Shown here: positions 1,908 to 20,816 of the stretch, one piece after another | Layout of the letters: every line of letters begins with the position of its first letter | Position numbering within the stretch: the stretch's first letter is position 1 | NCBI GenBank assembly: GCA_965230295.1 | Contig: OZ246001.1 | Coordinates: 3,456,001-3,520,000, forward strand | DNA length: 64,000 nucleotides | Direction: 5' to 3' | Origin: Marinicella sp. | GTDB lineage: Bacteria > Pseudomonadota > Gammaproteobacteria > Xanthomonadales > Marinicellaceae | The notes under the pieces: generated by a model | Seen by the model: the letters and a program-made list of their open reading frames with translations, nothing else | What the model was told of the DNA's origin: nothing | Databases searched by the model: none | Made by a program: the position numbers and the translations under genes

Positions 1908-2471
1908 TTAATTTCGAGTACCACAGCCATCAATGCGATCATCCGTCGTGGTATCGGCATGTAAATGCTCAACAAAATTACATGGCTTATGGGTACTGTC
2001 TAACTGTTCTTTGAGTATGCTTTCCCAAGCGGTTCGACAGGCATTGGTTGAACCTGGCATGCATGCAATGAGGGTACCATTGGCCATCCCGGCCAGTGCT
2101 CTGGACTGTACAGTTGAAGTGCCAATTTCACCGTAAGATATGTGCCTGAACAATTCTCCAAAACCAGGTACATCTGCCACAAATAATGGTTCAACGGCTT
2201 GTGGTGTGTTGTCTCTTTGGGTAAATCCGGTTCCACCGGTGATCAATACAACCTGAACATCAGCACGGTAAATCCAGTCTGAAACCACAGCCCTGATATG
2301 GAATAAGTCGTCTTTGATGATTTTCCTGTCTGCCAAATGGTGACCGGCTTCGATCAGTTTATCCTGTAACAGCTGTCCAGAAGTGTCGGTGTCTTCATTG
2401 CGGGTGTCACTGACTGTCAAAACGGCTATTTTCAGCGGTTTGAAAGTTGAATTGCTTAAGTGTGAGCTCAT
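1908..2471 (-). CDS. moaB: Molybdenum cofactor biosynthesis protein B
   Basis: IAVLTVSDTR, ITGGTGFT.RD.TP, MPGSTNAC and PCNFV motifs. Start is 2471 or 2477. Confidence 0.93.
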   Translation of the reverse strand: MSSHLSNSTFKPLKIAVLTVSDTRNEDTDTSGQLLQDKLIEAGHHLADRKIIKDDLFHIRAVVSDWIYRADVQVVLITGGTGFTQRDNTPQAVEPLFVADVPGFGELFRHISYGEIGTSTVQSRALAGMANGTLIACMPGSTNACRTAWESILKEQLDSTHKPCNFVEHLHADTTTDDRIDGCGTRN

Positions 2472-2529
2472 GGTCATATTATATTGATACTGTGTGACTA
2501 TTATAATTTAAGTTCGATGAAAGGGTTTT

Positions 2530-2591: not shown

Positions 2592-3263
2592 TTATCCTCG
2601 TTTTCTGACCACTTGATACCCTTTGCGAAACAGGTACTTAGCCGGTGCACTCCAGACATGGACCAGACGGGTGAATGGAAACACCAAAAACATGGTCAAG
2701 CCCAAAAAGATGTGCAGCTTGAAAATCATCGCTTCATGCACAATGAAATCAGCAGCACCTGATCTGAAGGTAACGATGTGCTGGGCCCAATTGGCCAACG
2801 CAATCATAGAACTGCCATCAGGGTGTTGAGCAGAGGCGGGTATGGTTAACAGACCCAGAATCAATTGCACAAACAGCAACAACAAAATAAAAAGGTCAGA
2901 AAACTTGGTGGTGGCCTTGACCCTTGGATTGGTTAAGCGGCGGTGGATCAAGATGACCATGCCAACAAAACAAATGGTACCAAAGATACCACCGGCAACC
3001 ATCGCCATCATTTGTTTGGTCGCTGCTGACATGAAAATATGGTAGATGCTTTCAGGCATCAACAGCCCAACCAAATGGCCAAAAAACAACAATATGATCC
3101 CCACATGGAACAGGTTACTGCCCAAGCGCATGCCTTTGGATGAAAGCATTTGGCTGGAACTGGCTTTCCACGTGTATTGATCACGGTCATACCTGAAAAT
3201 ACTACCGAGTAAAAACACGGTAATGGCAATGTACGGATAGATTCCAAATAAAAATTCATTCAT
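2592..3263 (-). CDS. narI: Respiratory nitrate reductase gamma subunit (cytochrome b)
   Basis: RYDRDQYTWKASSSQ, FHVGI..LFFGH and FPFTRLVH motifs; position in narGHJI. Confidence 0.97.
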   Translation of the reverse strand: MNEFLFGIYPYIAITVFLLGSIFRYDRDQYTWKASSSQMLSSKGMRLGSNLFHVGIILLFFGHLVGLLMPESIYHIFMSAATKQMMAMVAGGIFGTICFVGMVILIHRRLTNPRVKATTKFSDLFILLLLFVQLILGLLTIPASAQHPDGSSMIALANWAQHIVTFRSGAADFIVHEAMIFKLHIFLGLTMFLVFPFTRLVHVWSAPAKYLFRKGYQVVRKRG

Positions 3264-3967
3264 GACATGGCTCCGGTTGAATTAAAGGGGTGACCTTTGG
3301 ACTCTTGAATGTTGACTTTGATTTTTTGGTTCAAGTAATTGCGTGACTTGAATGGGTTTTTACCAAAGGCTTCTGGTTCAACCCATTGTTTATCAATGTC
3401 TTCGAAACTGACATCGTCTTGTTCTTGGGCCACCATTTGTTTGATTTCTTTCCTGTTGACCTTGCCCTTACTGAGTTCGGTCAAGGCGGCAAAAGCATGT
3501 TTATAATCCAGTTTCTTCTTGGCCAGTCTTTCTTTGACCAGCATCAAAACCTTGGCCGTTTCGCCCAGGACTTGACTGGCCTCTGCAGGCGTTCCTGAAG
3601 ATAAAAACTCCAAAAACACCGGCAAATGGTCAGGCAGTTCCGAGGTGGCAATGCCATAACCATTGGCGCTGTACATTTCCATCAAATCAATCATGGCTTG
3701 TCCACGGTCTCTGGATTCTCCATGGATGTGTTCAAACAAATGCAACGAATGTGCAGGGCCACGATCAAAAGTGGCCACATAGTATTCCTGCAGCTCGATC
3801 AAATCATCTGCCTCTAAACGGTCCATCAATTGGCTCAAGCCTTTGATTTTGGCTTTGGATAACAGCTTCTCTTCTTCCAAGACCTGTCTGAATTCGCCCA
3901 AATGATCAAGCCATTCTTGTCTGGGGTAGCTGAGTAATAAACTGAGTACTTTATATGTTTTCATCAT
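3260..3967 (-). CDS. narJ: Nitrate reductase Moco assembly chaperone
   Basis: LFEHIHGESRDRGQAM and ELPDHLP motifs; 4-bp overlaps with narH and narI. Confidence 0.96.
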   Translation of the reverse strand: MMKTYKVLSLLLSYPRQEWLDHLGEFRQVLEEEKLLSKAKIKGLSQLMDRLEADDLIELQEYYVATFDRGPAHSLHLFEHIHGESRDRGQAMIDLMEMYSANGYGIATSELPDHLPVFLEFLSSGTPAEASQVLGETAKVLMLVKERLAKKKLDYKHAFAALTELSKGKVNRKEIKQMVAQEQDDVSFEDIDKQWVEPEAFGKNPFKSRNYLNQKIKVNIQESKGHPFNSTGAMS

Positions 3968-5550
3968 GACTCCTTAGGCAATTCGTTGCTGTTTTGACCC
4001 CTGACCTTACCGTTCATGGTGTTCTTTTGTTTGGTCGAATCAAAAATGTTGAGTTTGAGTTTGCTGCCAGCACCACCATGACAGCCGTTACCGAAACTGA
4101 AACCACAAGAACCACGGTTTTCAAATGCCATTTCATTATCGAAAGGTGTTTCACCTGAGTATTCACGGTGATTGGTGGGGATTACAAAGCGATCTTCATA
4201 GTTAGCTAGTGCAATGGAGCGGTACATTTCATCCATCATTGGTTCATCGACACCATGGTCTTTCAATAACTCAAGGTCAGTGACACCATCAACCGTTTTA
4301 CGACGCATGAATTCCCTGAGCAACATGATGCGTTCCAGGCCCAATCTGATGGGCTCGGTCTGGCCGGCAGTTAACAAGTTGGCCAAGTATTTAACGGGTA
4401 TTCTGAGCTCATCCATTTTGGGGAATACCCCATCGGAGGAAATCAACCCTTTTTGCATGGCTGTTTTGATTGGTGACAAGGGAGGTACATACCAAACCAT
4501 CGGTAAAGTGCGGTATTCAGGATGTAATGGAAAAGCAATTTTCCATTCCATTGCCATTTTATAAACAGGCGATTTCTTGGCAGCTTCAATCCAAGCCATG
4601 GGCACACCGTCAGCCAAAGCTTGTTTTTGAACTTCCGGATCGTTGGGATCAAGAAAGATGTCCAATTGTGATTGGTACAGGTCTCCTTCATCTTCGATGC
4701 TGGCGGCTTCACCAATTTTATCGGCATCGTAAAGCATGACACCCAGGTACCGGATCCGACCCACGCAGGTTTCAGAGCATACTGTAGGTTCACCTGCTTC
4801 AATTCTGGGGTAACAGAAGGTGCATTTTTCAGATTTACCACTTTCCCAGTTGAAATAGATCTTTTTGTATGGACAACCACTGACACACATACGCCAGCCA
4901 CGACATTTATCCTGGTCGATCAGGACGATACCATCTTCTTCACGTTTATAAATCGCGCCTGAAGGACAGGTGGCCACACAGGACGGATTCAGACAATGCT
5001 CACACAAGCGTGGCAGGTACATCATGAAGGTCTCTTCAAACTGGCCGTAGATTTCCTTTTCTATCTCAGAAAAGTTGTAATCTTTGCTGCGCTTTGAAAA
5101 TTCACCACCCAATATTTCTTCCCAGTTGGGACCTTTATCGGGTTTTTCCATTTTTTCACCAGTCAAAGCAGAGTGAGCCCGTGCTGTGGGTGGTGTTTCT
5201 ACTTCCGGGGCATTTTGCAAGTGTGCATAATCGAAGGTAAAGGGTTCATAATAATCATCGATTTCAGGCAAGTCAGGATTGGCAAAGATTTTACTGAGCA
5301 ATTTCAATTTGCCGCCCATTTTGGGTCGGATTTTGCCATTCTTCAGCCGTTCCCAGCCGCCGTTCCATTTGGCCTGATTCTCCCAGTCATCCGGGTAACC
5401 AATACCAGGTTTGGTTTCAACGTTATTAAACCAGGCGTATTCAACCCCTTCACGAGAAGTCCAGACATTTTTACAAGTCACAGAACAAGTATGACAACCA
5501 ATACATTTGTCCAAGTTTAGGACTTTACCTATTTGTGCTCTTATTTTCAT
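3964..5550 (-). CDS. narH: Respiratory nitrate reductase beta subunit (Fe-S)
   Basis: LNLDKCIGCHTCSVTCK and the further Cys clusters CEHCLNPSC, CRGWRMC and CTFC. Confidence 0.98.
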   Translation of the reverse strand: MKIRAQIGKVLNLDKCIGCHTCSVTCKNVWTSREGVEYAWFNNVETKPGIGYPDDWENQAKWNGGWERLKNGKIRPKMGGKLKLLSKIFANPDLPEIDDYYEPFTFDYAHLQNAPEVETPPTARAHSALTGEKMEKPDKGPNWEEILGGEFSKRSKDYNFSEIEKEIYGQFEETFMMYLPRLCEHCLNPSCVATCPSGAIYKREEDGIVLIDQDKCRGWRMCVSGCPYKKIYFNWESGKSEKCTFCYPRIEAGEPTVCSETCVGRIRYLGVMLYDADKIGEAASIEDEGDLYQSQLDIFLDPNDPEVQKQALADGVPMAWIEAAKKSPVYKMAMEWKIAFPLHPEYRTLPMVWYVPPLSPIKTAMQKGLISSDGVFPKMDELRIPVKYLANLLTAGQTEPIRLGLERIMLLREFMRRKTVDGVTDLELLKDHGVDEPMMDEMYRSIALANYEDRFVIPTNHREYSGETPFDNEMAFENRGSCGFSFGNGCHGGAGSKLKLNIFDSTKQKNTMNGKVRGQNSNELPKES

Positions 5551-8500
5551 TGCTCACCTCCTTGGGCCAAGCCATTTTCTTTCCATTCGACGTTCTCCAT
5601 CTTGCGCACCACCACAAATTCATCCCGGTTGGAACCGACGGTGCCGTAATAGTTAAATCCATAGGACAGCTGGGCATAACCACCCACCATATGGGTGGGC
5701 TTAACCACCGCTCTGGTGACTGAGTTGTGGATACCACCCCGGTGGCCAGTGGCCTGGGAAATTGGGGTGTTGATGGTTTTCTCCTGGGCGTGGTACATCA
5801 TGCTCATGCCTTCAGGTACTCGCTGTGAAACCACAGCCCTGGCAGCAATGGCGCCGTTGACGTTATACAACTCGATCCAATCGTTGTCTTCGACACCAAT
5901 TTTTTCGGCATCAACTTCACTGATCCATACCACTGGACCACCACGATTCAGGGTCAACATCAACAAGTTTTCAGAATAGGTTGAATGAATGCCCCATTTT
6001 TGATGCGGGGTGATCCAGTTCAATACCACTTCTTTGTGACCGTTGGCTTTGGCCTGTTGAATCGGGGCCACGGTGCGGGTGTTGATGGGTGGTTTGTAGA
6101 CGCAGAATCCTTCTCCAAAATCTCGCAGCCACTTGTGATCTTGGTAGAAGTGCTGGCGTCCTGTTAAGGTTCGCCATGGAATCAATTCATGCACATTGGT
6201 GTAGCAAGCGTTGTAACTGACGTGCTCGTCTTCCAGGCCTGACCAAGTCGGAGAAGAGATGATTTTTCTGGGCTGCGCTTGGATATCGCGGAACCTGATT
6301 TTTTCATCTTCTTTGGGTTTGGCCAAATGGGTGTGATCACGTCCAGTGAATTTGCCCAGGGCTTCCCAGGCTTTGACAGCGACTTGTCCATTGGTTTCTG
6401 GCGCCAATGACAAGACCACTTCAGTGGCATCGATGTCAGATTCAATTTTTGGCATGCCTTTGGAAACACCTTCTTCGGTGACTTTCTGGTTCAAACGACC
6501 CAAGAATTCCACTTCATTTTTGGTGTCCCAGGCAATGCCTTTACCGCCATTGCCCAGTTTTTCCATCAACGGACCCACTGAAGTGAATTTCTTGTAGGTG
6601 TTGGGGTAATCCCGCTCTACCTCAACCAAATTGGGCATGGTTTTACCGGGAATCGGTTCGCATTCGCCTTTTTTCCATTCTTTAACATCCAGGGCTTGGG
6701 CCAATTCGCCCGGTGTGTCGTGTAATATGGGCACAGTCACCAGGTCTTTTTCGATACCCAAGTGACCCACACAAACTTGCGAGAATTTTTCAGCAAAGCC
6801 TTTGAAAATTTGCCAATCACTCTTAGACTCCCAAGCCGGATCAACCGCTTTGGATAAGGGGTGAATGAAAGGATGCATGTCAGAAGTGTTCAAATCGTTT
6901 TTTTCATACCAGGTGGCGGTTGGTAAAACGATGTCTGAATACAAGCAGGTGGTAGACATCCTGAAATCCAGTGTCACCACCAGGTCCAGTTTGCCCTCGG
7001 GTGCCTGTTCATGCCACCTCACTTCACTGGGTAAGGTTTTACCCATTTCGCCAATGTCTTGGCTCATCACGGCATTTTGGGTGCCCAACAAGTGTTTGAG
7101 CATGTATTCATGGCCTTTACCCGAAGAACCCAAGATGTTTGAACGCCAAATGAACATGTTGCGCGGGAAGTTGTCCGGGTTATCGGGGTCTTCACATGAG
7201 AAGGCCAAATCCCCTGATTTCAACTGCTCAACCGCAAATTCAGCGCAGGATTTTCCCGCGTTGGCAGCGTCTTTGGTCAGTTGTATGGGGTTTTGTTGTA
7301 ATTGTGGTGCTGAGGGTAACCAGCCCATGCGTTCAGAGCGCACATTACAATCAATCAATGAGGTGTTGCTCCATTCACTTTTATCTGCCAATGGCGATAA
7401 AATTTCATCGACTTCTAATTTTTCATAACGCCATTGGTTTGAATGGTTATAGAAAAATGAGGTGGAGTTCATTTGACGTGGTGGGCGGTGCCAATCAAGG
7501 CCAAAGGCCAGTGGCAGCCAACCGGTTTGTGGACGCAGTTTTTCCTGTCCGACATAATGGGCCCAACCACCACCGGATTTACCGACACAACCACACATCA
7601 TCAGCATGTTCATGATGCCTCGGTAGTTCATGTCCATGTTGTACCAATGGTTGATGGCGGCACCCAGGATGACCATGGAACGGCCGCGGGTTTTATCGGC
7701 ATTGTCGGCAAACTCTCTGGCAATCCTGATCACCACGTCTTTATCAACTCCGGTGATTTTTTCTTGCCAAGCTGGTGTGTAGGGCACATCATCATCAAAC
7801 GAGGTGGCACAGTTGTTATCATTCAGGCCTTGGTCAACACCATAATTGGCCATCATCAAATCAAACACAGTGGCAACCAATACTTCGCCATCTACGGTTT
7901 TCACTTTCCTGACAGGTACTTTGCGCTTGATGATTTCATCATGATCTGTGTGTTTGAAAATTTCCTGATCATGTTCTTCTGATGCAAAATAGGGGAATGA
8001 AACCTCAACCACATCATCATGGTTGTTGATCATTGATTTAAGTGGCCAAATTTCAGACCCGTCCTCGGTGTTCTTGGTTTCAAGGTTCCATTTTCCTTTG
8101 TCTTCACTCCAACGAGAACCGATGGTGCCATTGGGGGCGATGATCTGATTGCTCTTTTCATCAATCAACAAGGGTTTCCATTCAGCCTTATCAGCTTGAT
8201 TCAATTTGGCCACATCACTGGCCCTTAATGTCCGTCCAGCAGCATAGCCGGATTCATGTTGGTCCAATTTGATCAAAAACGGCATGTCGGTATAGGTACG
8301 ACAATAATCATCGAAATAATTACTGGGGTTGTCGCGGTGGAATTCAGTGAGGATGACATGTCCCATGGCCATGGCCAAAGCCGCATCGGTACCTTGTCTG
8401 GCTGGCATCCATTGGTCGCACAACTTGGCCACTTCTGAATAGTCAGGCGTTACAGCCACAGTTTTGGTACCTTTGTATCTGGCTTCAGTGAAGAAGTGCG

Positions 8501-9296
8501 CATCTGGTGTTCTGGTTTGAGGTACGTTAGAACCCCAAGCCATGATGTATGAAGAGTTGTACCAGTCAGCACTTTCAGGCACGTCTGTTTGTTCACCCCA
8601 AGTTTGAGGAGAAGAGGGTGGTAAATCACAATACCAATCATAGAAACTCATACAGGCGCCACCTATCAGTGACAAGTACCGACTGCCCGCAGCATATGAG
8701 ATCATACTCATGGCTGGAATCGGTGAGAAGCCTAAGATTCGATCGGGTCCATATTGTTTGATGGTGTGTACGTTGGATGCAGTGATGATTTCATTCACTT
8801 CATCCCATTCCGCACGAACAAATCCTCCTAAGCCCCTGATTGATTTATAAGATTGACAATCATCTTCATTGGCCATGATGGAGGCCCATGCATCCACCGG
8901 GTCAGAATGTTTGGCTTTGGCTTTGCGCCACAAGCGAATCAATCTCCCCCTGATCATGGGATACTTCAAACGTGTTGCACTGTATAAATACCAAGAATAA
9001 GATGCACCACGGGCACAACCACGTGGTTCATGATTGGGCAAATCTTCACGGGTTCTGGGATAGTCAGTTTGTTGGGTTTCCCAGGTGACCAAGCCCCGTT
9101 TCACATATATTTTCCAGCTACAAGATCCGGTACAGTTCACCCCATGGGTTGAACGGACAATTTTATCATGCGCCCAACGGTTGCGGTATGCACGTTCCCA
9201 ATCTCGGTTTTCATCGGTGGTGATGCCATGACCGTCAGAAAATTGTTCTGGTTTCTGTTTGGTTAAGTAAGTTAACCTGTCTAAAAATTGGCTCAT
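5547..9296 (-). CDS. narG: Respiratory nitrate reductase alpha subunit
   Basis: RSTHGVNCTGSCSW (FS0 ligands), FYDWYCDLPP (Mo-ligand Asp) and TPHQKWGIHS; 1249 aa. Confidence 0.99.
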   Translation of the reverse strand: MSQFLDRLTYLTKQKPEQFSDGHGITTDENRDWERAYRNRWAHDKIVRSTHGVNCTGSCSWKIYVKRGLVTWETQQTDYPRTREDLPNHEPRGCARGASYSWYLYSATRLKYPMIRGRLIRLWRKAKAKHSDPVDAWASIMANEDDCQSYKSIRGLGGFVRAEWDEVNEIITASNVHTIKQYGPDRILGFSPIPAMSMISYAAGSRYLSLIGGACMSFYDWYCDLPPSSPQTWGEQTDVPESADWYNSSYIMAWGSNVPQTRTPDAHFFTEARYKGTKTVAVTPDYSEVAKLCDQWMPARQGTDAALAMAMGHVILTEFHRDNPSNYFDDYCRTYTDMPFLIKLDQHESGYAAGRTLRASDVAKLNQADKAEWKPLLIDEKSNQIIAPNGTIGSRWSEDKGKWNLETKNTEDGSEIWPLKSMINNHDDVVEVSFPYFASEEHDQEIFKHTDHDEIIKRKVPVRKVKTVDGEVLVATVFDLMMANYGVDQGLNDNNCATSFDDDVPYTPAWQEKITGVDKDVVIRIAREFADNADKTRGRSMVILGAAINHWYNMDMNYRGIMNMLMMCGCVGKSGGGWAHYVGQEKLRPQTGWLPLAFGLDWHRPPRQMNSTSFFYNHSNQWRYEKLEVDEILSPLADKSEWSNTSLIDCNVRSERMGWLPSAPQLQQNPIQLTKDAANAGKSCAEFAVEQLKSGDLAFSCEDPDNPDNFPRNMFIWRSNILGSSGKGHEYMLKHLLGTQNAVMSQDIGEMGKTLPSEVRWHEQAPEGKLDLVVTLDFRMSTTCLYSDIVLPTATWYEKNDLNTSDMHPFIHPLSKAVDPAWESKSDWQIFKGFAEKFSQVCVGHLGIEKDLVTVPILHDTPGELAQALDVKEWKKGECEPIPGKTMPNLVEVERDYPNTYKKFTSVGPLMEKLGNGGKGIAWDTKNEVEFLGRLNQKVTEEGVSKGMPKIESDIDATEVVLSLAPETNGQVAVKAWEALGKFTGRDHTHLAKPKEDEKIRFRDIQAQPRKIISSPTWSGLEDEHVSYNACYTNVHELIPWRTLTGRQHFYQDHKWLRDFGEGFCVYKPPINTRTVAPIQQAKANGHKEVVLNWITPHQKWGIHSTYSENLLMLTLNRGGPVVWISEVDAEKIGVEDNDWIELYNVNGAIAARAVVSQRVPEGMSMMYHAQEKTINTPISQATGHRGGIHNSVTRAVVKPTHMVGGYAQLSYGFNYYGTVGSNRDEFVVVRKMENVEWKENGLAQGGEQ

Positions 9297-9345: not shown

Positions 9346-10962
9346 TCATGGGTTGTGGAATTCTGCATTGCTGCGCATGTAGAACCACCAGTTCAATAAC
9401 AAACAAACTGCATAGAAAATAGCAAATCCATACAAGGCGTATTCTGGTGTGGTTAATTTAATTTGCTCTCCCAGGATTTTTGGAATCAGGAAGGCGCCGT
9501 AAGCCGCGACTGCTGAAGTCCAGCCTAAAACAGGCCCGGCTTGTTCTTTGTTGAAGATCACAGCAATGGTTTTAAAAGTTGAACCATTGCCGATGCCGGT
9601 GGCTGTGAATAACAACAAGAACAGCAAGAAAAATGGTAAAAAATATTCCTCAGGTGTGGCACTGACATAGGCTTGTTGCATGAAATAGGCGACCCCCAAA
9701 GCGCTACCGATCATCACAATGGAAACGTACTGTGTCACTTTCGCGCCACCAATTTTGTCAGCAATGATGCCGCCCACAGGCCTGATCAATGCACCAATGA
9801 AAGGGCCCATCCAGGCATACATCAAAGCGCTGGGACCATTGGCGTTGACGGTGTTGTGGGTCATCACACCATCAACCATGATGTGTTGGTAACCGAAAAT
9901 CACTTTGATGGCCAAGGCGAATCCGGCTGAGTAACCAATGAAAGACCCGAAAGTCATGGTGTAGATAACGGTCATGACCCAAGTGTGTTTGTTGCCAAAG
10001 ATTTGATACTGCCTGGTTAAGTTGCGACCGATAGGTCCAGGAATGATTTTCAATAGAACCACAGTCATCACAATGACAATCGGTAGGACGATGAACTTAT
10101 CTAATTCAATACCTGAACCACCCATTTTGGCAGGTAACATCAACCACAGCCCAAAAGCTGCAGTGGCCAAGCCAATGGCCAACATGAAAAGAATCTTGGC
10201 AAATGCAGGGAAGGGTGAGCCGATATCTGGAGACACGTGTTCATCTTTGATGTTGTTCATGCCCAACCAGGTGGCGAATGCCAATGGCACCAACAACAGA
10301 ACCCAAACAAATCCGGCATTTTGAATGTATGTTTCGGTACCTGCCGCAATTTTGCCAATCAAGGTACCACTGGTGTTTTGCAGCGTCATTGAATCGCCAC
10401 CTAAGGCGCCGAACAAAGCAAAAGTCATCACCAACGGGACCAAAATTTGCATGGTGGTCACACCGAAGTTGCCCAATCCAGCATTCATGCCCAAAGAATA
10501 TCCTTGGACCTTTTTGGGGTAAAAGTAACTGATGTTTGACATCGATGAGGCGAAGTTACCGCCACCAAAACCACTCAACAATGCCCATAATTGGAACTGC
10601 CAAAGTGGGGTGTCTGGGTTTTGTAAAGCAAAGCCAGCACCCAAAGCAGGAATGATCAATAAGGATGTGGTCAGGAAAATGGTATTCCGACCGCCAGCAA
10701 TCCTGATAAAGAAGGTACTGGGTATGCGTAAGGTGGCACCAGAAAGGCCAGCAATGGCAGCCAAAGTAAACAGTTCAGCTTTCTCGAAAGGAAAGCCCAA
10801 GTTCATCATTTGGACGGTGATGATGCCCCAATACAACCAAACGGCAAATCCGCACAACAGTGCGGGTATTGATATCCATAAATTTCTTGTGGCAGTTTTT
10901 TTGCCATAGGCTTCCCATTGTTGTTCGTCTTCGGGATTCCAGCCTGTTAAGTCTTTAGCCAT
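9346..10962 (-). CDS. narK: Nitrate/nitrite transporter, NarK2 type
   Basis: MFS NNP family: GGGNFASSM, GLGNFG and GIGNGSTFK; immediately upstream of narG. Confidence 0.93.
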   Translation of the reverse strand: MAKDLTGWNPEDEQQWEAYGKKTATRNLWISIPALLCGFAVWLYWGIITVQMMNLGFPFEKAELFTLAAIAGLSGATLRIPSTFFIRIAGGRNTIFLTTSLLIIPALGAGFALQNPDTPLWQFQLWALLSGFGGGNFASSMSNISYFYPKKVQGYSLGMNAGLGNFGVTTMQILVPLVMTFALFGALGGDSMTLQNTSGTLIGKIAAGTETYIQNAGFVWVLLLVPLAFATWLGMNNIKDEHVSPDIGSPFPAFAKILFMLAIGLATAAFGLWLMLPAKMGGSGIELDKFIVLPIVIVMTVVLLKIIPGPIGRNLTRQYQIFGNKHTWVMTVIYTMTFGSFIGYSAGFALAIKVIFGYQHIMVDGVMTHNTVNANGPSALMYAWMGPFIGALIRPVGGIIADKIGGAKVTQYVSIVMIGSALGVAYFMQQAYVSATPEEYFLPFFLLFLLLFTATGIGNGSTFKTIAVIFNKEQAGPVLGWTSAVAAYGAFLIPKILGEQIKLTTPEYALYGFAIFYAVCLLLNWWFYMRSNAEFHNP

Positions 10963-11027: not shown

Positions 11028-12329
11028 TCAGTGTTTGACGTTGCGTAATTCAGGTAAATATCCGGGTTTGTCCAGATCAGGATTGGCTTCTTTGTCGGCC
11101 CGCAGGATGGCAAAGTGCATCCAGATCAAGGCCACGCCAATGATCACGGTTAACAGCATGAAACAACTGGTCCAAACACCTATCATGTCATTCATCAAGC
11201 CGAACAGTATGGGCAGGATGAAACCGCCCAAACCTCCAATCAAACCCACGATGCCGCCGACTGAGCCAACATTGTTTGGGTAGTAATGTGGAATGTGTTT
11301 GTAAACCGCCGCTTTACCTAATGACATGAAAAATCCCAAGATGATGGTGATGGTTACAAACAACCACAGAGGAATGGTGATGTTGAACTGGATGGGGCCG
11401 TTGATGCCGGCTACGGTGTAGTCGGTTGCAGGGTAAGAGAGGAAGAAGGTGCAAATCACACAGGCAATGAAAGTCCAGTACATGACTTTTCTGGCCCCCA
11501 CTTTGTCTGACAGCCAGCCACCCAAAGCCCTGAAGATGGACCCTGGCAAGGCATAGCAAGCAGCTAAAAAGCCCGCAGTGGCGAGTTCTAAGCCATAGGC
11601 GCCTACATAGTACCTGGGCAACCACAGGGCCAGTGCCACATAGGCACCAAAGACAAAGAAGTAATACAGTGAAAAACGCCAAACCTGGATGTTTTTCAAA
11701 GGTTTAAGCTGTTCCATGAATGGTCTGGCTTTGGTTTTTTCACCTGAGTGTGCAGGGTCGGTTTTGGTGGTCAGGAAGAACAAAATGGCGGTCACTGCCA
11801 AGATGGCGGCGTAGACCAAGACCACATTTTGCCAAACACCGCCTAAGGCAACCAATAAGATAGGTGCTCCAAAGTTGGTGATGGCTGCACCGACATTACC
11901 CACACCAAAGATGCCCAATGCAGTGCCTTGCTTGTTGTCTGGGTACCAAGAAGAAACATAGGCGATGCCGACAGCAAATGATCCACCGGCCAGTCCCAAC
12001 CCCAATGCGCCAAGCAGGTACATTTCATAAGAGGTTGCTTTGGTCAAGAAAAATGCCGCCAAAGCAGTGGTCAACATTTGAATGGTGTAGACAATGCGGC
12101 CACCATATTGGTCGGTCCAAATCCCTAAAAACAAACGACTTAAAGAACCCGTTAATATGGGGGTGGCCACCAAGACACCGAATTGGGTATCTGTCAAGCC
12201 CAATTCGGCTTTGATTTTGATACCAATGATAGAAAAAATAGTCCACACAGCAAAACAAACAGTGAATGCCAGGGTACTGGTTATCAATGCTCTGTTTTGG
12301 TCACTTTGAGGAACTTGATCTAAGTTCAT
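11028..12329 (-). CDS. narK: Nitrate transporter, NarK1 type
   Basis: GLAGGSFAVG, FGVGNVG and SLGKAAVYK motifs. ATG 12329 is preceded by GGAG; the TTG start at 12404 in the ORF track lies inside the promoter. Confidence 0.92.
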   Translation of the reverse strand: MNLDQVPQSDQNRALITSTLAFTVCFAVWTIFSIIGIKIKAELGLTDTQFGVLVATPILTGSLSRLFLGIWTDQYGGRIVYTIQMLTTALAAFFLTKATSYEMYLLGALGLGLAGGSFAVGIAYVSSWYPDNKQGTALGIFGVGNVGAAITNFGAPILLVALGGVWQNVVLVYAAILAVTAILFFLTTKTDPAHSGEKTKARPFMEQLKPLKNIQVWRFSLYYFFVFGAYVALALWLPRYYVGAYGLELATAGFLAACYALPGSIFRALGGWLSDKVGARKVMYWTFIACVICTFFLSYPATDYTVAGINGPIQFNITIPLWLFVTITIILGFFMSLGKAAVYKHIPHYYPNNVGSVGGIVGLIGGLGGFILPILFGLMNDMIGVWTSCFMLLTVIIGVALIWMHFAILRADKEANPDLDKPGYLPELRNVKH

Positions 12330-12395
12330 GTTTGTCACTCCTGGTTTAAAAATCTGGTTCGGGTGACATTTTTGTTGAAACTTGATGCTTTGTAC

Positions 12396-12409
12396 TTGAC
12401 GCAAGTCAA
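12396..12409. promoter_or_regulatory. FNR/DNR-family binding site between divergent narK1 and the NIT-Crp gene
   Basis: Perfect palindrome TTGAC-GCAA-GTCAA. Confidence 0.85.
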
Positions 12410-12469
12410 TAATTTTAATTTAGTCACAGGCTATGATGAAACCATGAGGATTTTCTGTAAAATAAAAGA

Positions 12470-14053
12470 ATGAAAAGCGAAGCCAATCTCAACAGTTTGT
12501 TACATACATTGAGCCAAATCATTCATTGTTTCCAACTTGAGCGTGGTAGTTTATGTTTGTACTTATGCGCCCCCACAGATGAAAACCTAAAAAGATTAGA
12601 GTTAAGTGTAAATAACAGCGATAACCAACTGAATTTACTTAATAAATATTTAAGTTGTTCAAGTTCAAAGTTGAATGATAAGCAATTAAACAGCACACAA
12701 AAATTAGCCCATGCCATTGAGGCATTCCATGTTAAATCTTCTTTTCGCCAAGAGATATCAATGTGTGATCTTGATATTGCTGAGGTGGTACCTTTATATA
12801 CCTACAGTTTAATCATTCACCTCATTTACAAATTAATTGAGCTGGCCTTGTTTGAAGAATCCGTGGTGCCATCAGAAGTCAGTGCCTTATCGAATTACAT
12901 CAACTGGAAAGAACGGATAGGACGAGAAAGGGCTTTGGGTGTCATTGGTTTTACTACCGGAGAATTTGATTCTGATGTTTTTCTCAGAGATTTTAAAATA
13001 CTGCTGGATGAACAAGAAATCAATAAGTCATCATTTTTGGCCCTGGCCAGCCCATCTCAGAGTGCCATGTTTAACAACATGTATTCGACTCAGAAGGACA
13101 TCAAAGCCTTTCACCAACAAATGGATACAGGTGACCAACCCCAGCTTGATGCCGAATTTTGGTTTGGAGTTGTCAGCACCAAGATGGACATGATGCATGG
13201 CATAGAGTTGGCTTTGATTGATCAATTTTCTAAACAAGACAAAGAGAACATAGAACCGCAAAATCACCATTTGTTTGCAGTTGGAGATATTCAAATGGTG
13301 TCTGAATTTCCCATGTTCAGGAATCTGTCAGAAAACATCAAACAGACTTTATTCAAATCAAGCAATTTAAGAAATTATAAAAAGGGCAGTCTGTTGTTTT
13401 TAGAAGGCGAGCAAGCCACCCGTATCTTTGTGGTCGTCAGTGGCTGGGTGAAAATTTATAAAAGTGCCTTGGATGGTCAGGAAAGCATTGAATACATGCT
13501 TACCACAGGAGATGTGGTGATTGAATCGTCGATTTTTACCAGCAGCATATACAACAACAGTGCTCAAGTCAGTTCAGAAGCCAAGTTGCTTTCGTTTCCA
13601 GCCGCCATTTATCGTAATTTGATCAGTAAAGACCTGACTTTGGCATTGAATTCATTGAAATACCTGTCACAAAGTTCTGCCAAATACCAAAGTCAAATTG
13701 ACAGCAATCGATTGAAATCATCAAAAGAACGGGTGGGACAGTTTTTGTTGCGGGAATTTGTAAAACAAAAGAATCCAAATACCATTTTATTACCTTACGA
13801 AAAAACCATCATAGCGTCTGTGTTGGATATGAAGCCTGAAACGTTTTCTCGATCATTGAAATCACTGAAAAAAGAAGGGCTGACGTCTGAAAAACAACAG
13901 ATTCAAGTAAAGAACATCAAAACACTGTGTAGCTTCTGTGATAAAGAGATCGCAGCCAGTTGCCAATTCAAGGATAAACATGACTGCAGTTTCGAAAAAA
14001 ACACTCCTCGATTATCACAAAACGCTAGAGATCCTCTCAGAAGTCGCCCTTAA
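12470..14053 (+). CDS. NIT domain - Crp/Fnr transcriptional regulator fusion with C-terminal Cys4 tail
   Basis: N-terminal NIT motifs IHCFQLERG and WKERIGRERALG; cNMP-fold region LLFLEGE...VVSGWVKIYK; HTH with PETFSR; tail Cx2Cx7Cx7C. Confidence 0.85.
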   Translation: MKSEANLNSLLHTLSQIIHCFQLERGSLCLYLCAPTDENLKRLELSVNNSDNQLNLLNKYLSCSSSKLNDKQLNSTQKLAHAIEAFHVKSSFRQEISMCDLDIAEVVPLYTYSLIIHLIYKLIELALFEESVVPSEVSALSNYINWKERIGRERALGVIGFTTGEFDSDVFLRDFKILLDEQEINKSSFLALASPSQSAMFNNMYSTQKDIKAFHQQMDTGDQPQLDAEFWFGVVSTKMDMMHGIELALIDQFSKQDKENIEPQNHHLFAVGDIQMVSEFPMFRNLSENIKQTLFKSSNLRNYKKGSLLFLEGEQATRIFVVVSGWVKIYKSALDGQESIEYMLTTGDVVIESSIFTSSIYNNSAQVSSEAKLLSFPAAIYRNLISKDLTLALNSLKYLSQSSAKYQSQIDSNRLKSSKERVGQFLLREFVKQKNPNTILLPYEKTIIASVLDMKPETFSRSLKSLKKEGLTSEKQQIQVKNIKTLCSFCDKEIAASCQFKDKHDCSFEKNTPRLSQNARDPLRSRP

Positions 14054-15269
14054 TCACACATCTTTTTGCACCAGTGAATCCATACAAGTGGTTGATGCGG
14101 TTGGTCGCATTGCAGCAGAGGAGGTTACTTCAGGCATTGATGTGCCTTCTTTCAATAATTCAGCCATGGATGGATTTGCGGTGGATGCAACCACAGTGAA
14201 TCAACAATTGCAAAATGCAACTGAGGCCAAGATTCATGTGGTTGGTCAAATTCAAGCCGGCGACAAAAGCGAAATTGACATCAGTGAAGAAGGAAAAAAT
14301 GCCTGGGAAATCATGACAGGGGCACCTGTTCCTGCCATGTTTGATGCTGTGATACCCATTGAACAGATGAAGGTTGAACAGCATGATGAAAGTACTGTGA
14401 TTATCATCAATCAATCCGTTCGTTCAGGTCAAAATGTTCGCATGTCCGGAACAGATTACCAACAAGGACAGAAGGTCATTAGCAAACACACAGTGATTCA
14501 CCCACAACATGTGATGGCATTGGCTACAGTAGGCGCCAAGCAAATTAATGTTCTTAAACAGATACCCGTGGCCATTTTTTCAACTGGGAATGAACTCTCA
14601 GAGCGTTCAAGTAATGAACTGGCTTCCGGTAAAATTTTCAACTCTAATCAACCGTTTCTACAATCCTACTTGCAAGACATCACCTGCCAGCCGGTGTTTG
14701 TCTCCAGTTGTCAGGACATCGAAGGGCAGTTTGAAGAACTGTTGGAAGATGCCAAGAGGCATGAGGTAAAAATTGTTTTTTCGACTGGGGCTGTGTCCAT
14801 GGGGCGGTATGACTTTATTCCGAAAGTCTTAGAGAAAAAAGGGGCTGTTATTCACTTTCACAAAGCCAAAGTACGTCCTGGTAAGCCCATTTTGTTTGCG
14901 GAACTGCCCGATGGCACATTGTATTTTGGCTTGCCAGGCAATCCCATCGCAGCCGCTTCAGGTGTCAGGTTCTTTGCCACACCCTTTATCCGGAAAATGC
15001 AAGGATTGCACGAAGAACCTTTGGTTAAGGCTGTATTGAGTCAAGATGTTGATAAAAAACAAGGGTTCAGAACTTTTGCCAAAGCCCGTGCATGGATATC
15101 TGAAAGTGGGCAACTGAAAGTAGATATGTTGGTTGGTCAGGGTTCATTTCAAACCCATTCTTTTGCGCAATCCAATTGTTGGTTGGTTCTGCCGGAAGAT
15201 GCAGAACACATCAAAGCAGGAGAGTTGGTTGACTTGCTCCCAATGGCGCCTGGTGCTTTGACAGTATGA
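13980..15269 (+). CDS. moeA: Molybdopterin molybdotransferase
   Basis: FNNSAMDGFA, STGNEL, RPGKP and GLPGNP motifs; ATG 13980 preceded by AGGA. Confidence 0.95.
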   Translation: MTAVSKKTLLDYHKTLEILSEVALNHTSFCTSESIQVVDAVGRIAAEEVTSGIDVPSFNNSAMDGFAVDATTVNQQLQNATEAKIHVVGQIQAGDKSEIDISEEGKNAWEIMTGAPVPAMFDAVIPIEQMKVEQHDESTVIIINQSVRSGQNVRMSGTDYQQGQKVISKHTVIHPQHVMALATVGAKQINVLKQIPVAIFSTGNELSERSSNELASGKIFNSNQPFLQSYLQDITCQPVFVSSCQDIEGQFEELLEDAKRHEVKIVFSTGAVSMGRYDFIPKVLEKKGAVIHFHKAKVRPGKPILFAELPDGTLYFGLPGNPIAAASGVRFFATPFIRKMQGLHEEPLVKAVLSQDVDKKQGFRTFAKARAWISESGQLKVDMLVGQGSFQTHSFAQSNCWLVLPEDAEHIKAGELVDLLPMAPGALTV

Positions 15270-15808
15270 ATACAGCGGGTGTGATCTTAAATGGTGGCCA
15301 GTCTAGCCGCATGGGCCAGGATAAATCATTGTTAACCATTCAAGGTATCAGTTTGCTTGAACACAGCAAAAACACACTCAAGGCTGCAGGATTGGATGAT
15401 GTCTTTGTCAGCGGATCGGGAGGAATCCCAGATCGGATCCAGAATGCAGGTCCGTTGTCCGGAATCCATGCAGCATTGTATAAACTTGAAGAATTCAATT
15501 CTTTGGTATTTATCCCAGTGGACATGCCATTATTGAAGCCGGCAATGTTGTCACAGTTAATGGCCCACACTGATCATGATATGGTGCATTATGAAGGGAA
15601 ACATTTTCCCATAATGATGAAAAACATACCTGCTGTCAGAGACCTCATCACTCAACAATTAAAGCAGAATAAATTGGCCATTCACCAATTGATCAAATCA
15701 GCCAGTTGCCAGTCTTTGCCTCACAATTGGTCAGAAGATTGCTTTGCCAACACCAACACCCAAGAGCAATGGCACAGCGTGTTAGCGCAGATAAAAAATC
15801 ACCAATGA
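15266..15808 (+). CDS. mobA: Molybdenum cofactor guanylyltransferase
   Basis: ILNGGQSSRMGQDK, GPLSGI and PVDMP motifs; ATGA overlap with moeA. Confidence 0.92.
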   Translation: MNTAGVILNGGQSSRMGQDKSLLTIQGISLLEHSKNTLKAAGLDDVFVSGSGGIPDRIQNAGPLSGIHAALYKLEEFNSLVFIPVDMPLLKPAMLSQLMAHTDHDMVHYEGKHFPIMMKNIPAVRDLITQQLKQNKLAIHQLIKSASCQSLPHNWSEDCFANTNTQEQWHSVLAQIKNHQ

Positions 15809-15823
15809 TTAAAAATGTAGACT

Positions 15824-16849
15824 TCAACCCATGCTGCGACTGAACAGCTGTTTGACCAAGCCAGACATCACCCATATCCACGCCAATACAGAAACCCATA
15901 ACATCCCAAGTGAAAAATAACTCAAGGGTGTGAATTCAGCGGATAAAGCTAAGTTGTGGGTGGCCACAGTAAACATGCCCAATGGAAAAACGATGCTCCA
16001 CTGCATGGGGTCATAACTCAATTTGACTTTTTTATACCCATGTTTCCATATGCCAAACACGACCAACAATGGTATCCACCAGGTGGCCCATGTCCAAAGC
16101 ATGATTGACATCATTTTAATCACGGCATGCAAGTCGATCAATGTAGGGAAGATGGGGTCAGTTAACAATAAATGAGTGCCGGCATTGGCACTGATGGCCG
16201 CAGCACCCATGATGACCCACATCAAGGGTGAATAATCATCCAGCTGCATTTCTTTGAAGAAGATCCGATAACAAAACAAAGTGACAAAAATGGCATAAAA
16301 CATCAGTCCCAAAGCCCAAAGCATGTGTATCTCCACCATCATGTAGCCAGCAAAATCACCCAACTCGCTGGCGATTTTGGATCCCAATAACACCAATGAC
16401 TGGGTGCCAACAATCAATATCAGCCAACCACCGTGCACCACATTGACGTTGCGGTTAGGGTTGGCAAAACTCAAAGCCGAAAAACTGAAATACATCAACA
16501 AAGACCACACCAAAAAAGCCAAAACCCAACATGATATGGCCAACAACGACAGGCCGTGCTGAAACAACAACAGCCCGCAGATGTTGGTGGCTGCAACAAA
16601 GGTAAAGAAAATGAAGGTGGTTTTGGGGTTCAATAAGTTTTCTAACACTTGTTTGGGAAATAACAACAGTCGCCAGGTATATAAAACAACCAAGACAACC
16701 CATGAGAAAAGAGTGATGAAATAAAACATTTCGGCCCACGACTGCATGGCCCACATGCTTAACCCAACAGAGAGGATACCGGTGGCCATGGTCAAAGAAA
16801 AATATCCAGGATACAAGACTTTCAGCCAGTTGTACTTAGTCGTGTTCAT
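15824..16849 (-). CDS. TDT family (TehA/SLAC1/C4-dicarboxylate) anion channel
   Basis: PGYFSLTMATGILS, FTFVAA, WVIMGAAAIS and WSIVFPLGM motifs; about 10 hydrophobic segments. Confidence 0.88.
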   Translation of the reverse strand: MNTTKYNWLKVLYPGYFSLTMATGILSVGLSMWAMQSWAEMFYFITLFSWVVLVVLYTWRLLLFPKQVLENLLNPKTTFIFFTFVAATNICGLLLFQHGLSLLAISCWVLAFLVWSLLMYFSFSALSFANPNRNVNVVHGGWLILIVGTQSLVLLGSKIASELGDFAGYMMVEIHMLWALGLMFYAIFVTLFCYRIFFKEMQLDDYSPLMWVIMGAAAISANAGTHLLLTDPIFPTLIDLHAVIKMMSIMLWTWATWWIPLLVVFGIWKHGYKKVKLSYDPMQWSIVFPLGMFTVATHNLALSAEFTPLSYFSLGMLWVSVLAWIWVMSGLVKQLFSRSMG

Positions 16850-18701: not shown

Positions 18702-20816
18702 ATGTGTGCAGCTAAAAATATACTGAAGGAAGTTTTTGGGTACGATCAGTTTCGCAATCAACAAGAGGAAATTGTCAATGCCATAGTTGATGGGAAAGAT
18801 GCCTTGGTGCTGATGCCTACCGGAGGGGGCAAATCTTTGTGTTATCAGATTCCGGCCATTGCCAGGGCTGGAGTGGGCGTGGTGGTTTCGCCATTGATTG
18901 CCTTGATGCAGGACCAAGTCAATGCCTTGAAACAACTTGGAGTGAAGGCTGCTTATATCAATTCAACCTTGTCTGCTGCAGATGTAGATGAGGTACAAAA
19001 GCAAGCCATTGATGGTACCTTGGATTTGTTGTATTTATCACCTGAACGACTGTTGGGAGATGAAACCCAGGCCTTTCTTAAAAATGTCGATGTGGCCTTG
19101 TTTGCGATTGATGAGGCCCATTGTGTCTCTCAGTGGGGACACGACTTCAGAAAAGAGTACCAAAAATTATCCATCCTTCATGAGAACTTTCCAGCCGTAC
19201 CTCGAATCGCTTTGACGGCTACTGCTGATGAAAAGGTGAGGGCGGAAATTGTTAAAGAACTGCAGTTGGATGGGGCAGAAATATACGTTTCCAGTTTTGA
19301 CCGCCCTAACATCACTTATGCCATTGAGGAACAGGAAAATGGTAAACAACAATTGTGGCGATTTATCAATGAAAATCATCCAACAGATGCTGGTATTGTT
19401 TATTGTCTGTCTCGACGTAAGGTGGAAGCGGTGGCTGAATTTTTGGTGGGCAAAGGACGCAAAGCACTGCCATATCATGCAGGCTTGTCAAATAAGATTC
19501 GTGAGAAAAACCAAAGCCAATTTTTGATGGAAGACGGGGTGATTATAGTGGCCACCATTGCTTTCGGAATGGGTATAGATAAACCCGATGTGCGTTTTGT
19601 GGCGCACTTCAGTATGCCTAAAAATATTGAATCTTATTATCAGGAAACTGGACGGGCAGGACGTGATGGACAAGTTTCAAATGCCTGGATGGCCTATAAC
19701 TATAAAGATGTTGTGATGCAAAGACAGTTCATCCGTGATTCAGATGCGGCCGATGAGCATAAAAATGTGTTACATAACAAATTAGACTCATTGGTTGATT
19801 TGTGTGAACAATTGGATTGCCGAAGACAAACACTGTTGCGTTATTTCAATGAAACTTTGGAAGAACCCTGTGGTAATTGTGATAACTGTCTGAATCCACC
19901 AGAGAAAATTGATGCTTCAAAAGAAGCACAAATGGCCTTGTCTGCTATATACCGCACAGATCAACAGTTTGGCATCATGTATTTGATAGATGTTTTGTTG
20001 GGCAGTGATGCGGATGAACGAGTGGGCAAATTAAAACATGACCGACTCAATGTTTTTGGCTTGGGGAAAGACCATGTGAAGACCTGGTGGCGACGATTGT
20101 ATCGCCAATTGATCAGTCAGGGATTCATTGATGTAGAAGCCGAGTTTGGTTCTTTGAAATTAACAGAAAAATCCAAATCAATATTGTCGGGTGACAAATC
20201 TTTTTACCTTCGGGATGTGGTTAAGGCCAGCAATAAGTCGAAGAAAAGCGATGAAGTTGATTTGGGTCGGCATGACACCATTTTATGGAACGCCCTGAAA
20301 AAACTCAGAATGGACCTGGCTTCAGATCAAGGTGTACCGCCTTATGTGATTTTCAGTGATGCTTCGTTATTAGAAATGGTCAGGAAACGCCCTGTGGAAG
20401 GTGAGAAATTCATGTACATATCAGGGGTAGGGGAATATAAACTGGCCAAATATGGTGAAGACTTCATTCGAGTGATCAAAGACAACCCATTGCCTGATAA
20501 GTTAGACAACAGGCTTGAAGATGAAGTTAATGTCTCGTTAGATCATTTCTTGGAACACAAGTCTGTTGAAAAAGTGGCAGAGGTTCTTGATCTGAATATC
20601 AATACAGTGTTCATGCATTTATCCAAAGCCATTGCGGTCGGCCTGGTAGATAAAAAGGACGTCACAGGGCTGGAAGATGGCGACATTGATTACATCATAC
20701 AAATGGCAGAGATGACTGGTTACCTTGAAGAAAAGAAACTCAAACCGGTTTTTGATGCACTTGACGGTATGTATGACTATGGTACATTGCGATGTGTACT
20801 TGCCGAGCTCGAGTGA
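18702..20816 (+). CDS. recQ: ATP-dependent DNA helicase RecQ
   Basis: MPTGGGKS, DEAHCVSQWGHDFR, QETGRAGRDG, Zn-binding CRR...CGNCDNC, HRDC domain (VPPYVIFSD) and a C-terminal HTH-like extension. Confidence 0.97.
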   Translation: MCAAKNILKEVFGYDQFRNQQEEIVNAIVDGKDALVLMPTGGGKSLCYQIPAIARAGVGVVVSPLIALMQDQVNALKQLGVKAAYINSTLSAADVDEVQKQAIDGTLDLLYLSPERLLGDETQAFLKNVDVALFAIDEAHCVSQWGHDFRKEYQKLSILHENFPAVPRIALTATADEKVRAEIVKELQLDGAEIYVSSFDRPNITYAIEEQENGKQQLWRFINENHPTDAGIVYCLSRRKVEAVAEFLVGKGRKALPYHAGLSNKIREKNQSQFLMEDGVIIVATIAFGMGIDKPDVRFVAHFSMPKNIESYYQETGRAGRDGQVSNAWMAYNYKDVVMQRQFIRDSDAADEHKNVLHNKLDSLVDLCEQLDCRRQTLLRYFNETLEEPCGNCDNCLNPPEKIDASKEAQMALSAIYRTDQQFGIMYLIDVLLGSDADERVGKLKHDRLNVFGLGKDHVKTWWRRLYRQLISQGFIDVEAEFGSLKLTEKSKSILSGDKSFYLRDVVKASNKSKKSDEVDLGRHDTILWNALKKLRMDLASDQGVPPYVIFSDASLLEMVRKRPVEGEKFMYISGVGEYKLAKYGEDFIRVIKDNPLPDKLDNRLEDEVNVSLDHFLEHKSVEKVAEVLDLNINTVFMHLSKAIAVGLVDKKDVTGLEDGDIDYIIQMAEMTGYLEEKKLKPVFDALDGMYDYGTLRCVLAELE

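Follow-up and report, generated by a model that had tools for sequence, protein, structure and literature searches.

A NIT-Crp/Fnr fusion protein with a four-cysteine tail, encoded divergently from narK1-narK2-narGHJI in Marinicella sp., as a candidate one-component nitrate-responsive activator

The window analyzed here is a stretch of 64,000 nucleotides from a gammaproteobacterium of the genus Marinicella (contig OZ246001.1 of assembly GCA_965230295.1, positions 3,456,001 to 3,520,000 of the forward strand). It contains, on its reverse strand, the genes narK1 and narK2 for nitrate/nitrite transporters and narGHJI for respiratory nitrate reductase, and, read divergently from them across an intergenic region of 139 nt, a regulator gene (P0001) whose product joins a NIT domain to a Crp/Fnr module and a four-cysteine tail (Table 1). 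This divergence from narK, claimed in a preliminary description made from the letters of the DNA, was borne out by the two start codons, the narK1 ATG lying at 12329 (-) behind an AGGAG Shine-Dalgarno sequence and that of the regulator at 12470 (+). Nitrate sensing for respiratory nitrate reductase is poorly understood in bacteria that possess neither NarX/NarL nor NreABC. We propose, with a probability of about 0.68, that the regulator is a cytoplasmic one-component nitrate/nitrite-responsive activator of narK1-narK2-narGHJI that acts via a TTGAY-N4-RTCAA box situated in this intergenic region.

The three domains of the regulator (NIT, cNMP_binding and HTH_Crp_2) are real, all of them exceeding the curated Pfam cut-offs. 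The NIT domain scores 81.2 bits against a cut-off of 24.9 and covers positions 2-237 of the 239 positions of the profile, and the two signature motifs from which the preliminary description had recognized it, HCFQLERG and KERIGRERA, are both found in the translation. That description had also seen no transmembrane segment, and none was found in the regulator here, where the top 19-residue Kyte-Doolittle mean is 1.45 and the helical NIT domain of the AlphaFold model begins already at residue 7. The cNMP-fold domain and the helix-turn-helix (HTH) with a PETFSR recognition helix, which it had placed behind the NIT domain, proved equally sound. A cNMP-type beta-roll followed by a C-terminal Crp-type HTH is the layout of the Crp/Fnr superfamily, and recognition helices of the E--SR pattern read TTGA half-sites. 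The Pfam scan matched no ANTAR domain in the regulator, the C-terminal half of which is Crp/Fnr. Among NCBIfam models, the best for the regulator is FtrB (NF006901) with 112.7 bits, under its equivalog cut-off of 211, the Fnr model reaches 29 bits against a cut-off of 228, and the CRP model gives less than 30 bits. The protein has no N-terminal cysteine cluster of the FNR type, its N-terminus being occupied by the NIT domain. Note also that the G+C content at 12001-14000, over the regulator, is 0.387, as compared with 0.44-0.48 in the flanking nar and moeA genes.

Table 1. Position of the regulator gene, its domains and motifs, the intergenic elements and the neighboring genes in the window.
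Feature	Position	Strand	Basis
NIT-Crp/Fnr-Cys4 regulator gene (P0001)	12470..14053	+	ATG-start open reading frame, 527 amino acids (aa), Pfam domains
NIT domain, residues 17-252	12518..13225	+	Pfam PF08376, E 2e-22, profile match to 4AKK
NIT helix-1 motif HCFQLERG, residues 19-26	12524..12547	+	conservation; alignment with NasR LQCERG
NIT helix-5 motif KERIGRERA, residues 147-155	12908..12934	+	conservation; alignment with NasR GKELAGQERALG
cNMP-fold (beta-roll) domain, residues 301-388	13370..13633	+	Pfam PF00027, E 9e-17; strands in model
Crp-type helix-turn-helix, residues 420-487	13727..13930	+	Pfam PF13545 (HTH_Crp_2), E 2e-10
Recognition helix PETFSR, residues 456-461, E--SR pattern	13835..13852	+	invariant residues
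C-terminal four-cysteine motif C487-x2-C490-x7-C498-x7-C506	13928..13987	+	conservation in homologues
FNR-type palindrome TTGACGCAAGTCAA, narK1/regulator intergenic	12396..12409	.	perfect TTGA-N6-TCAA
Putative narK1 -10 hexamer AAAAAT, centered 32 nt from box center	12368..12373	-	inference; read from sequence
Putative regulator -10, conserved TAAAAT just before ATG	12458..12463	+	gamma-clade alignment
narK1 (major facilitator superfamily nitrate/nitrite transporter)	11028..12329	-	TIGR00886 226 bits (below cut-off 311.7); Pfam MFS_1 above cut-off
narK2 (NarK/NarU-type transporter)	9346..10962	-	TIGR00886 277 bits, NarU NF011608 306.8 bits, both below cut-offs
narG	5547..9296	-	TIGR01580, 2218 bits vs cut-off 1084
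narH	3964..5550	-	Pfam Fer4_11 and Nitr_red_bet_C
narJ	3260..3967	-	Pfam Nitrate_red_del
narI	2592..3263	-	Pfam Nitrate_red_gam
MoCF_biosynth (Mog/MoaB-like) gene, after narI	1908-2477	-	Pfam
moeA	13980..15269	+	MoeA_N; start inferred from in-frame ATG and MoeA_N profile offset
mobA	15266..15808	+	Pfam NTP_transf_3 above cut-off; best NCBIfam TIGR02665 80.7 bits, below cut-off 151.85
SLAC1/TehA-type anion channel gene, directly after mobA, convergent, nar-module edge	15824-16849	-	
RecQ helicase gene with C-terminal HTH_40, 2 kb beyond nar module	18702-20816	+	

The regulator belongs to a conserved family of marine Alpha- and Gammaproteobacteria. A word-indexed search over 5.8 billion proteins gave 123 matches, of which 120 were listed, and 118 of these 120 listed homologous clusters have the three-domain architecture (NIT, cNMP_binding, HTH_Crp_2), the remaining two being shorter proteins with NIT and cNMP domains only. 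Named carriers include Marinicella rhabdoformis (52% identical), Kordiimonas spp., Emcibacter, Robiginitomaculum and Henriciella. When one genome per species was scanned (185,579 genomes), 505 relatives were confirmed by tblastn; the architecture of the relatives and their loci were analyzed in the best 80 of these 505, all of which are full length and align over approximately residues 7-506. They originate from gammaproteobacterial metagenome-assembled genomes (MAGs; 52-57% identical) and from many Alphaproteobacteria (30-38%). In a plasmid collection, 300 records were matched via the Crp half only, and none covers at least 80% of the protein. The architecture is already automatically annotated in databases, where a few family members bear the name 'nitrate- and nitrite sensing domain-containing protein', and it is hence not unseen; no publication on a NIT-Crp/Fnr protein was found in a full-text literature search, most subscription journals being outside its coverage. 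We also would like to mention that in one MAG of the Emcibacteraceae two NIT-Crp paralogues stand in tandem beside narK1 (L020 4919-6448 and 8001-9527), and that another locus has a second, partial match 8 kb downstream (L087, 17198-17542).

Residue conservation was followed in an alignment of 107 homologues, 29-70% identical. Positions Q22, E24, R25, K147, G151 and R154 of the NIT domain are invariant in this alignment, as are E457, T458, S460 and R461 of the DNA-reading helix, and at H19, G26, E148, E153 and A155 conservation is 90% or more. The family profile matches the structure of NasR (4AKK) with an E value of 1.4e-26 over profile positions 12-265, with both arginine-containing motifs aligned, R25, K147, G151 and R154 corresponding to the QCERG and GQERALG motifs of NasR. 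The pocket proposed for NasR is formed by arginines of helices 1 and 5 (PMC7496416).

An AlphaFold2 model computed with the same alignment is confident, with a mean predicted local distance difference test (pLDDT) value of 88.4 and a predicted template modeling score of 0.66. It consists of an all-helical domain (residues 7-255), followed by a linker, the beta-roll, a long helix and the HTH, then by a compact cysteine region with pLDDT values of approximately 88-90 and a disordered tail from residue 511. In a profile search of PDB sequences, the Crp half finds 3FX3/3H3Z from Ruegeria pomeroyi (1.8e-50) and DNR (3DKW, 1.2e-39), both of which are also among the top Foldseek matches, whose TM-scores to Crp-family structures are 0.65-0.86. 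NasR does not occur among the Foldseek PDB matches listed, those listed being all Crp-family chains, and fold support for the NIT half thus rests on the sequence profile match. A homodimer prediction (residues 7-506, two copies) scored 0.39 against a mark of 0.42.

The linkage of the regulator to nar is near-obligate. Of the 70 loci whose upstream flank exceeds 3 kb, 66 have narK/narG upstream on the opposite strand, and a narK-type gene starts divergently within 600 nt in 62 of the 80 loci. Downstream of the regulator, loci of the gamma clade have moeA-mobA directly, as in the window, and those of the alpha clade have a moaA-type radical-SAM gene in first place. Within its own genus the regulator occurs in three of 19 genomes (G000, G010 and G023), and narG is present in exactly those three; in a genome of the same order (G035), narG is present and the regulator was not found. 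Genus co-occurrence and gene linkage together indicate that the nar cluster and the regulator behave as one accessory module. The identity of the regulator among the three genus genomes is only 52-54%, and in gamma-clade loci narG is 82-90% identical to that of the window and the regulator 52-57%; the nar module is patchy and the regulator fast-evolving. At the 3′ end of the regulator gene, the moeA ATG at 13980 overlaps its last 74 nt, which encode the poorly conserved, disordered tail past C506, and gamma-clade relatives have the same tight or overlapping regulator/moeA junction. Because the moeA start overlaps the 3′ end of the regulator, a regulator-moeA-mobA operon with translational coupling is suggested.

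The preliminary description had further pointed to a TTGA-N6-TCAA box between the regulator and narK, and the intergenic region indeed carries a perfect palindrome, TTGACGCAAGTCAA. Such boxes are not significantly enriched within the window alone, which contains nine matches compared with 4.1 +/- 1.9 in shuffled sequences, and it is the comparison between loci alone that counts as evidence. Of 77 loci, 64 have a perfect box in the 330 nt upstream of the regulator, where 200 shuffles gave 0.65 such loci on average and never more than 4, and the box is kept in 58 of 63 narK/regulator intergenic regions, window included. The conservation of the box across relatives is thus far beyond chance. As a rule it stands alone, 54 of the 58 box-bearing regions having a single box and four having more than one, and in the 46 tabulated boxes positions 5 and 10 are Y and R, respectively, which gives the consensus TTGAY-N4-RTCAA.

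Class-II activator sites are centered at -41.5 relative to the start of transcription, which fixes their spacing from the -10 hexamer. On the narK side of the box, a YANNNT hexamer is found 31-32 nt from the box center in 39 of 58 regions (19 of 58 for strict TANNNT), and the regulator side has a hexamer count of 0-1 at these offsets. This spacing is that expected for a putative class-II, -41.5 activator site of the narK promoter, and the occurrence of the -10-like hexamer on the narK side only points to a class-II register for this promoter. At the position homologous to the putative narK1 -10 hexamer of the window (AAAAAT), the gamma-clade alignment shows TAAAAT.

The regulator itself probably has its own, box-independent promoter. 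In the gamma-clade intergenic alignment G127, T128, A130 and A132, belonging to a GTAAAAT sequence before the regulator ATG, are invariant, the distance from GTAAAAT to the box is variable, and a scan for promoter-like sequences paired the TAAAAT with an ATGAAA across a 16-nt spacer. The box is not obviously autoregulatory, since the regulator promoter is out of register with it. A class-II autoregulatory arrangement via TATGAT (12432-12437), which would place the box at -41.5, was rejected, as this hexamer is not conserved in the gamma clade and no hexamer peak exists on the regulator side. GTAAAAT (window 12457-12469) precedes the predicted start codon by no more than 6-14 nt in the gamma clade, and no Shine-Dalgarno sequence can be seen; the mRNA of the regulator may have little or no leader. 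In the alpha clade, another perfect box recurs just past the regulator stop codon, before the moaA-type gene (approximately 9570-9630 in many loci; for example, L045 9569-9582, ahead of a moaA-type radical-SAM gene at L045 9686-10723), which suggests that the regulator also activates a moaA gene there.

The genome as a whole, one contig that is 97.9% complete, was also searched for other proteins that could read such a box or sense nitrate. Besides the regulator it has four matches to HTH_Crp_2, and the three examined are CRP, an FNR-like protein (P0121) with an N-terminal NCGDCELC cluster and an EETLSR helix, and a DNR/FtrB-like protein (P0122) with a PETFSR helix and no cysteine cluster; the fourth match, to a 151-aa open frame, is weak (28.4 bits). 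The gene for P0122 lies between an ankyrin-repeat protein gene and nirS for cytochrome cd1 (C1:3062103-3065312, L003), and a copper nitrite reductase was not found in the genome. Its gene content suggests a nirS denitrifier in which E--SR regulators form a set of three tiers. The preliminary description had the regulator replacing NarXL, and as regards the sensor the genome agrees: no NarX-like sensor was found in it, the only match to PF13675 (PilJ/NarX-sensor) being a chemoreceptor and the best match to the NarX model reaching 49.7 bits against a cut-off of 578, over the kinase core only. PF13675 is likewise unmatched in four of the five named alphaproteobacterial carriers, and in G035, which has narG without NIT-Crp, the best match to the NarX model (98.6 bits) again covers the kinase core only.

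A feature overlooked in the earlier reading of the sequence is the C-terminal Cx2Cx7Cx7C tail, which directly follows the HTH. In the 107 homologues C487, C490 and C498 are invariant and C506 is at least 90% conserved, and the tail is not found in the closest solved relatives, the NIT-less proteins 3FX3, 3H3Z and DNR. An exhaustive HMMER search with residues 268-527 returned 8902 relatives with E values of up to 0.001, including 76 with values of up to 1e-30, and tail classes were assigned to 155 rows comprising the best 150 relatives, three family members and two paralogues from the genome. They include 44 long Cys-tailed proteins, 45 short ones (approximately 180-365 aa) with the same kind of tail, 31 short proteins with other Cys-rich tails and 30 without cysteines. 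Of nine long proteins checked in Pfam, seven have a NIT domain, one has none and one is a tandem Crp; P0132, checked as a short form, is a plain Crp with a Cys tail. A word-based search for short relatives of residues 268-527 gave two matches, both likely fragments. In a FastTree phylogeny of the Crp modules, all 44 long rows fall in an 87-row clade (support 99) together with 35 short Cys-tailed rows, with a sister group that has other Cys-rich tails and the cysteine-free proteins outside; this tree was built with FastTree only, is midpoint-rooted and has many weak forks. As long and short Cys-tailed rows share a clade, the tail is a family trait not dependent on NIT, which suggests that it predates the NIT fusion. 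Searched against five carrier genomes, P0132 matches best to the NIT-Crp gene itself (47-73% identity), and certain short forms may be fragments or may have lost the NIT domain recently.

Standalone proteins of this type, Crp/Fnr proteins of approximately 240-270 aa with a CxxCD-x6-C-x7-C tail and no NIT domain, include P0132, P0133, P0136, P0140, P0142, P0144, P0163 and others, and the sister set has tails of the CCxxCS...FPC type; neither set seems to have been described. HcpR2 was considered as a precedent for a C-terminal iron-sulfur (Fe-S) site and dropped, PMC4534486 saying nothing on cysteines. From its conservation, the tail of the regulator may be a second (metal or redox) input.

In the mechanism that we propose, nitrate and/or nitrite imported by the narK1 and narK2 products would bind to the N-terminal NIT domain, and ligand binding would either relieve an inhibitory contact or reorient the Crp/Fnr-type dimer. 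Release of an inhibitory contact has been proposed for NasR (PMC7496416). The E--SR helices would then bind TTGAY-N4-RTCAA, centered at approximately -41.5 from the start site of narK1, and the regulator would activate narK1-narK2-narGHJI as a class-II activator, doing the job of NarX-NarL in E. coli and that of NarR in Paracoccus. The interpretation already advanced in the preliminary description, of a one-component, NIT-gated nar activator, is supported by the computational checks on architecture, linkage and box; here we infer the identity of the ligand, the occupancy of the box by the NIT-Crp protein rather than by FNR, the direction of regulation and the allosteric route.

Several observations weigh against this reading. 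Nar genes are missing upstream in 4 of the 70 loci (L009, L066, L069 and L082), and 5 of the 63 adjacent narK/regulator pairs have no perfect box. The linker between the NIT and Crp parts (residues 251-270) is of low confidence (pLDDT 60-77), so that the coupling mechanism is not visible in the model. Possession of a NIT domain is no guarantee of nitrate binding; the NIT domain of PA4520 is reported to bind neither nitrate nor nitrite, and the authors of that work suggest that NIT is a superfamily whose ligands differ (PMC6381276). The NIT domain of the regulator could accordingly sense another oxyanion or a metabolic signal, or be a dimerization or scaffold module, with nar answering to a different cue, which we consider quite improbable given that the residues aligned with the arginine-containing motifs of NasR are invariant and that the gene is tied to those for nitrate transporters and reductase in nearly all loci with sufficient flank. 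Finally, the FNR-like P0121 and the DNR-like P0122 could read the same box, to judge from their helices, and with these E--SR paralogues in the genome and mostly a single box per region, the box is not assignable to the NIT-Crp protein by sequence alone. Boxes of the TTGAT-N4-ATCAA type are indeed the standard FNR target. The box might then be an FNR (or DNR) site, the NIT-Crp protein acting elsewhere or as a nitrate-relieved competitor or repressor at this site; the presence of P0121, the type of the box and the regulator promoter lying out of register with it would fit, as would the dual control of Paracoccus nar by FnrP and NarR (PMC3541799). We nevertheless regard such an assignment as unlikely, since the invariant E--SR helix argues for a conserved TTGA half-site target of the family's own, the box is the only element beside the gene that is conserved across Alpha- and Gammaproteobacteria, and the regulator and narG strictly co-occur within the genus.

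The proposal of a one-component nitrate-responsive activator can be extended, tentatively, to a two-input regulator, in which the NIT domain would sense nitrate or nitrite and the Cys tail would bind an Fe-S cluster labile to oxygen or nitric oxide (NO). The conservation of the four cysteines, the confident modeling of the region and the absence of the tail from the closest solved NIT-less relatives are in favor of this possibility, and in B. subtilis and B. cereus Fnr a C-terminal cysteine extension ligates a [4Fe-4S] cluster (PMC3520743). A single box in most intergenic regions would fit one protein integrating both signals, and the tail is, according to the tree, a family trait that exists independently of NIT. 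On the other hand, the spacing is unlike that of ferredoxin motifs and that of Bacillus Fnr (Cx2Cx4C plus Asp; PMC3520743), a structural zinc site would account equally well for four cysteines in a short knuckle, oxygen could be sensed by the FNR-like protein of the genome, which has an N-terminal Cys cluster, and the supporting tree has the weaknesses given above. Taken one step further, the single polypeptide could constitute an AND gate, in which only a doubly satisfied dimer (nitrate plus Fe-S) would activate the one narK-narGHJI box, a conjecture that we hold to be doubtful.

The domains themselves, the one-component NIT principle (NasR) and dedicated Crp/Fnr regulators of nar (NarR) are already known. 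What is new here is a gammaproteobacterial member of the family whose gene overlaps a moeA-mobA operon, its co-occurrence with narG at the level of the genus, the analysis of promoter register and the placement of the protein among standalone Cys-tailed Crp relatives. The mechanism that the family offers is a readable one, in which a nitrate-receptor fold already known is wired straight to an FNR-type DNA-binding module, and the family seems to be common among marine Alpha- and Gammaproteobacteria with a part in oceanic nitrate reduction. Use of the regulator as a compact cytoplasmic nitrate biosensor encoded by a single gene is also conceivable. Were the tail to prove a redox-sensing cluster, this would be one of the rare cases in nature of two sensory inputs flanking one Crp/Fnr output, and if the AND gate were true, the textbook circuit of FNR and NarX/NarL would be collapsed into one protein in many marine Alpha- and Gammaproteobacteria.

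Among known systems, NarR of Paracoccus pantotrophus and P. denitrificans is a plain Crp/Fnr-sized protein with no recognizable nitrate-binding domain; its gene divergently adjoins narK, and we know of no established sensing mechanism for it. The regulator described here is likewise encoded beside narK-narG and divergently from it, in the window as in the 66 loci mentioned above, and differs from NarR in layout by a NIT domain of 255 residues that precedes the Crp/Fnr module and a four-cysteine tail that follows it. NarR is, like it, a Crp/Fnr-family protein, dedicated to respiratory nitrate reductase and working beside an oxygen-sensing FNR and an NO-sensing NNR/DNR paralogue, and the FNR, DNR and nar-specific layout of the present genome parallels FnrP, NNR and NarR of Paracoccus (PMC3541799). 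DNR of Pseudomonas aeruginosa (3DKW) and 3FX3/3H3Z are the closest solved Crp modules and share the PET/ESxSR helix; unlike the regulator, they have neither a NIT domain nor a Cys tail. Fnr of Bacillus subtilis and B. cereus resembles the regulator in having a cysteine cluster in a C-terminal extension, made up in that case of Cx2Cx4C plus an aspartate (PMC3520743), as opposed to the putative Cx2Cx7Cx7C cluster found here; Bacillus Fnr has no NIT domain. NasR of Klebsiella oxytoca (4AKK) is, as is predicted from sequence for the regulator, a cytoplasmic one-component sensor with an N-terminal NIT domain; its output is an RNA-binding ANTAR antiterminator serving nitrate assimilation (PMC7496416), whereas here it is a Crp/Fnr DNA-binding module beside respiratory nar. 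Finally, FNR with NarX-NarL in E. coli and ANR with NarXL in Pseudomonas also turn on narK and narGHJI with nitrate, from a TTGA-N6-TCAA site in class-II register. FNR and NarX-NarL make up two systems of three proteins in all, the sensor being periplasmic and of the P-box type, whereas in Marinicella a single cytoplasmic polypeptide would take their place.

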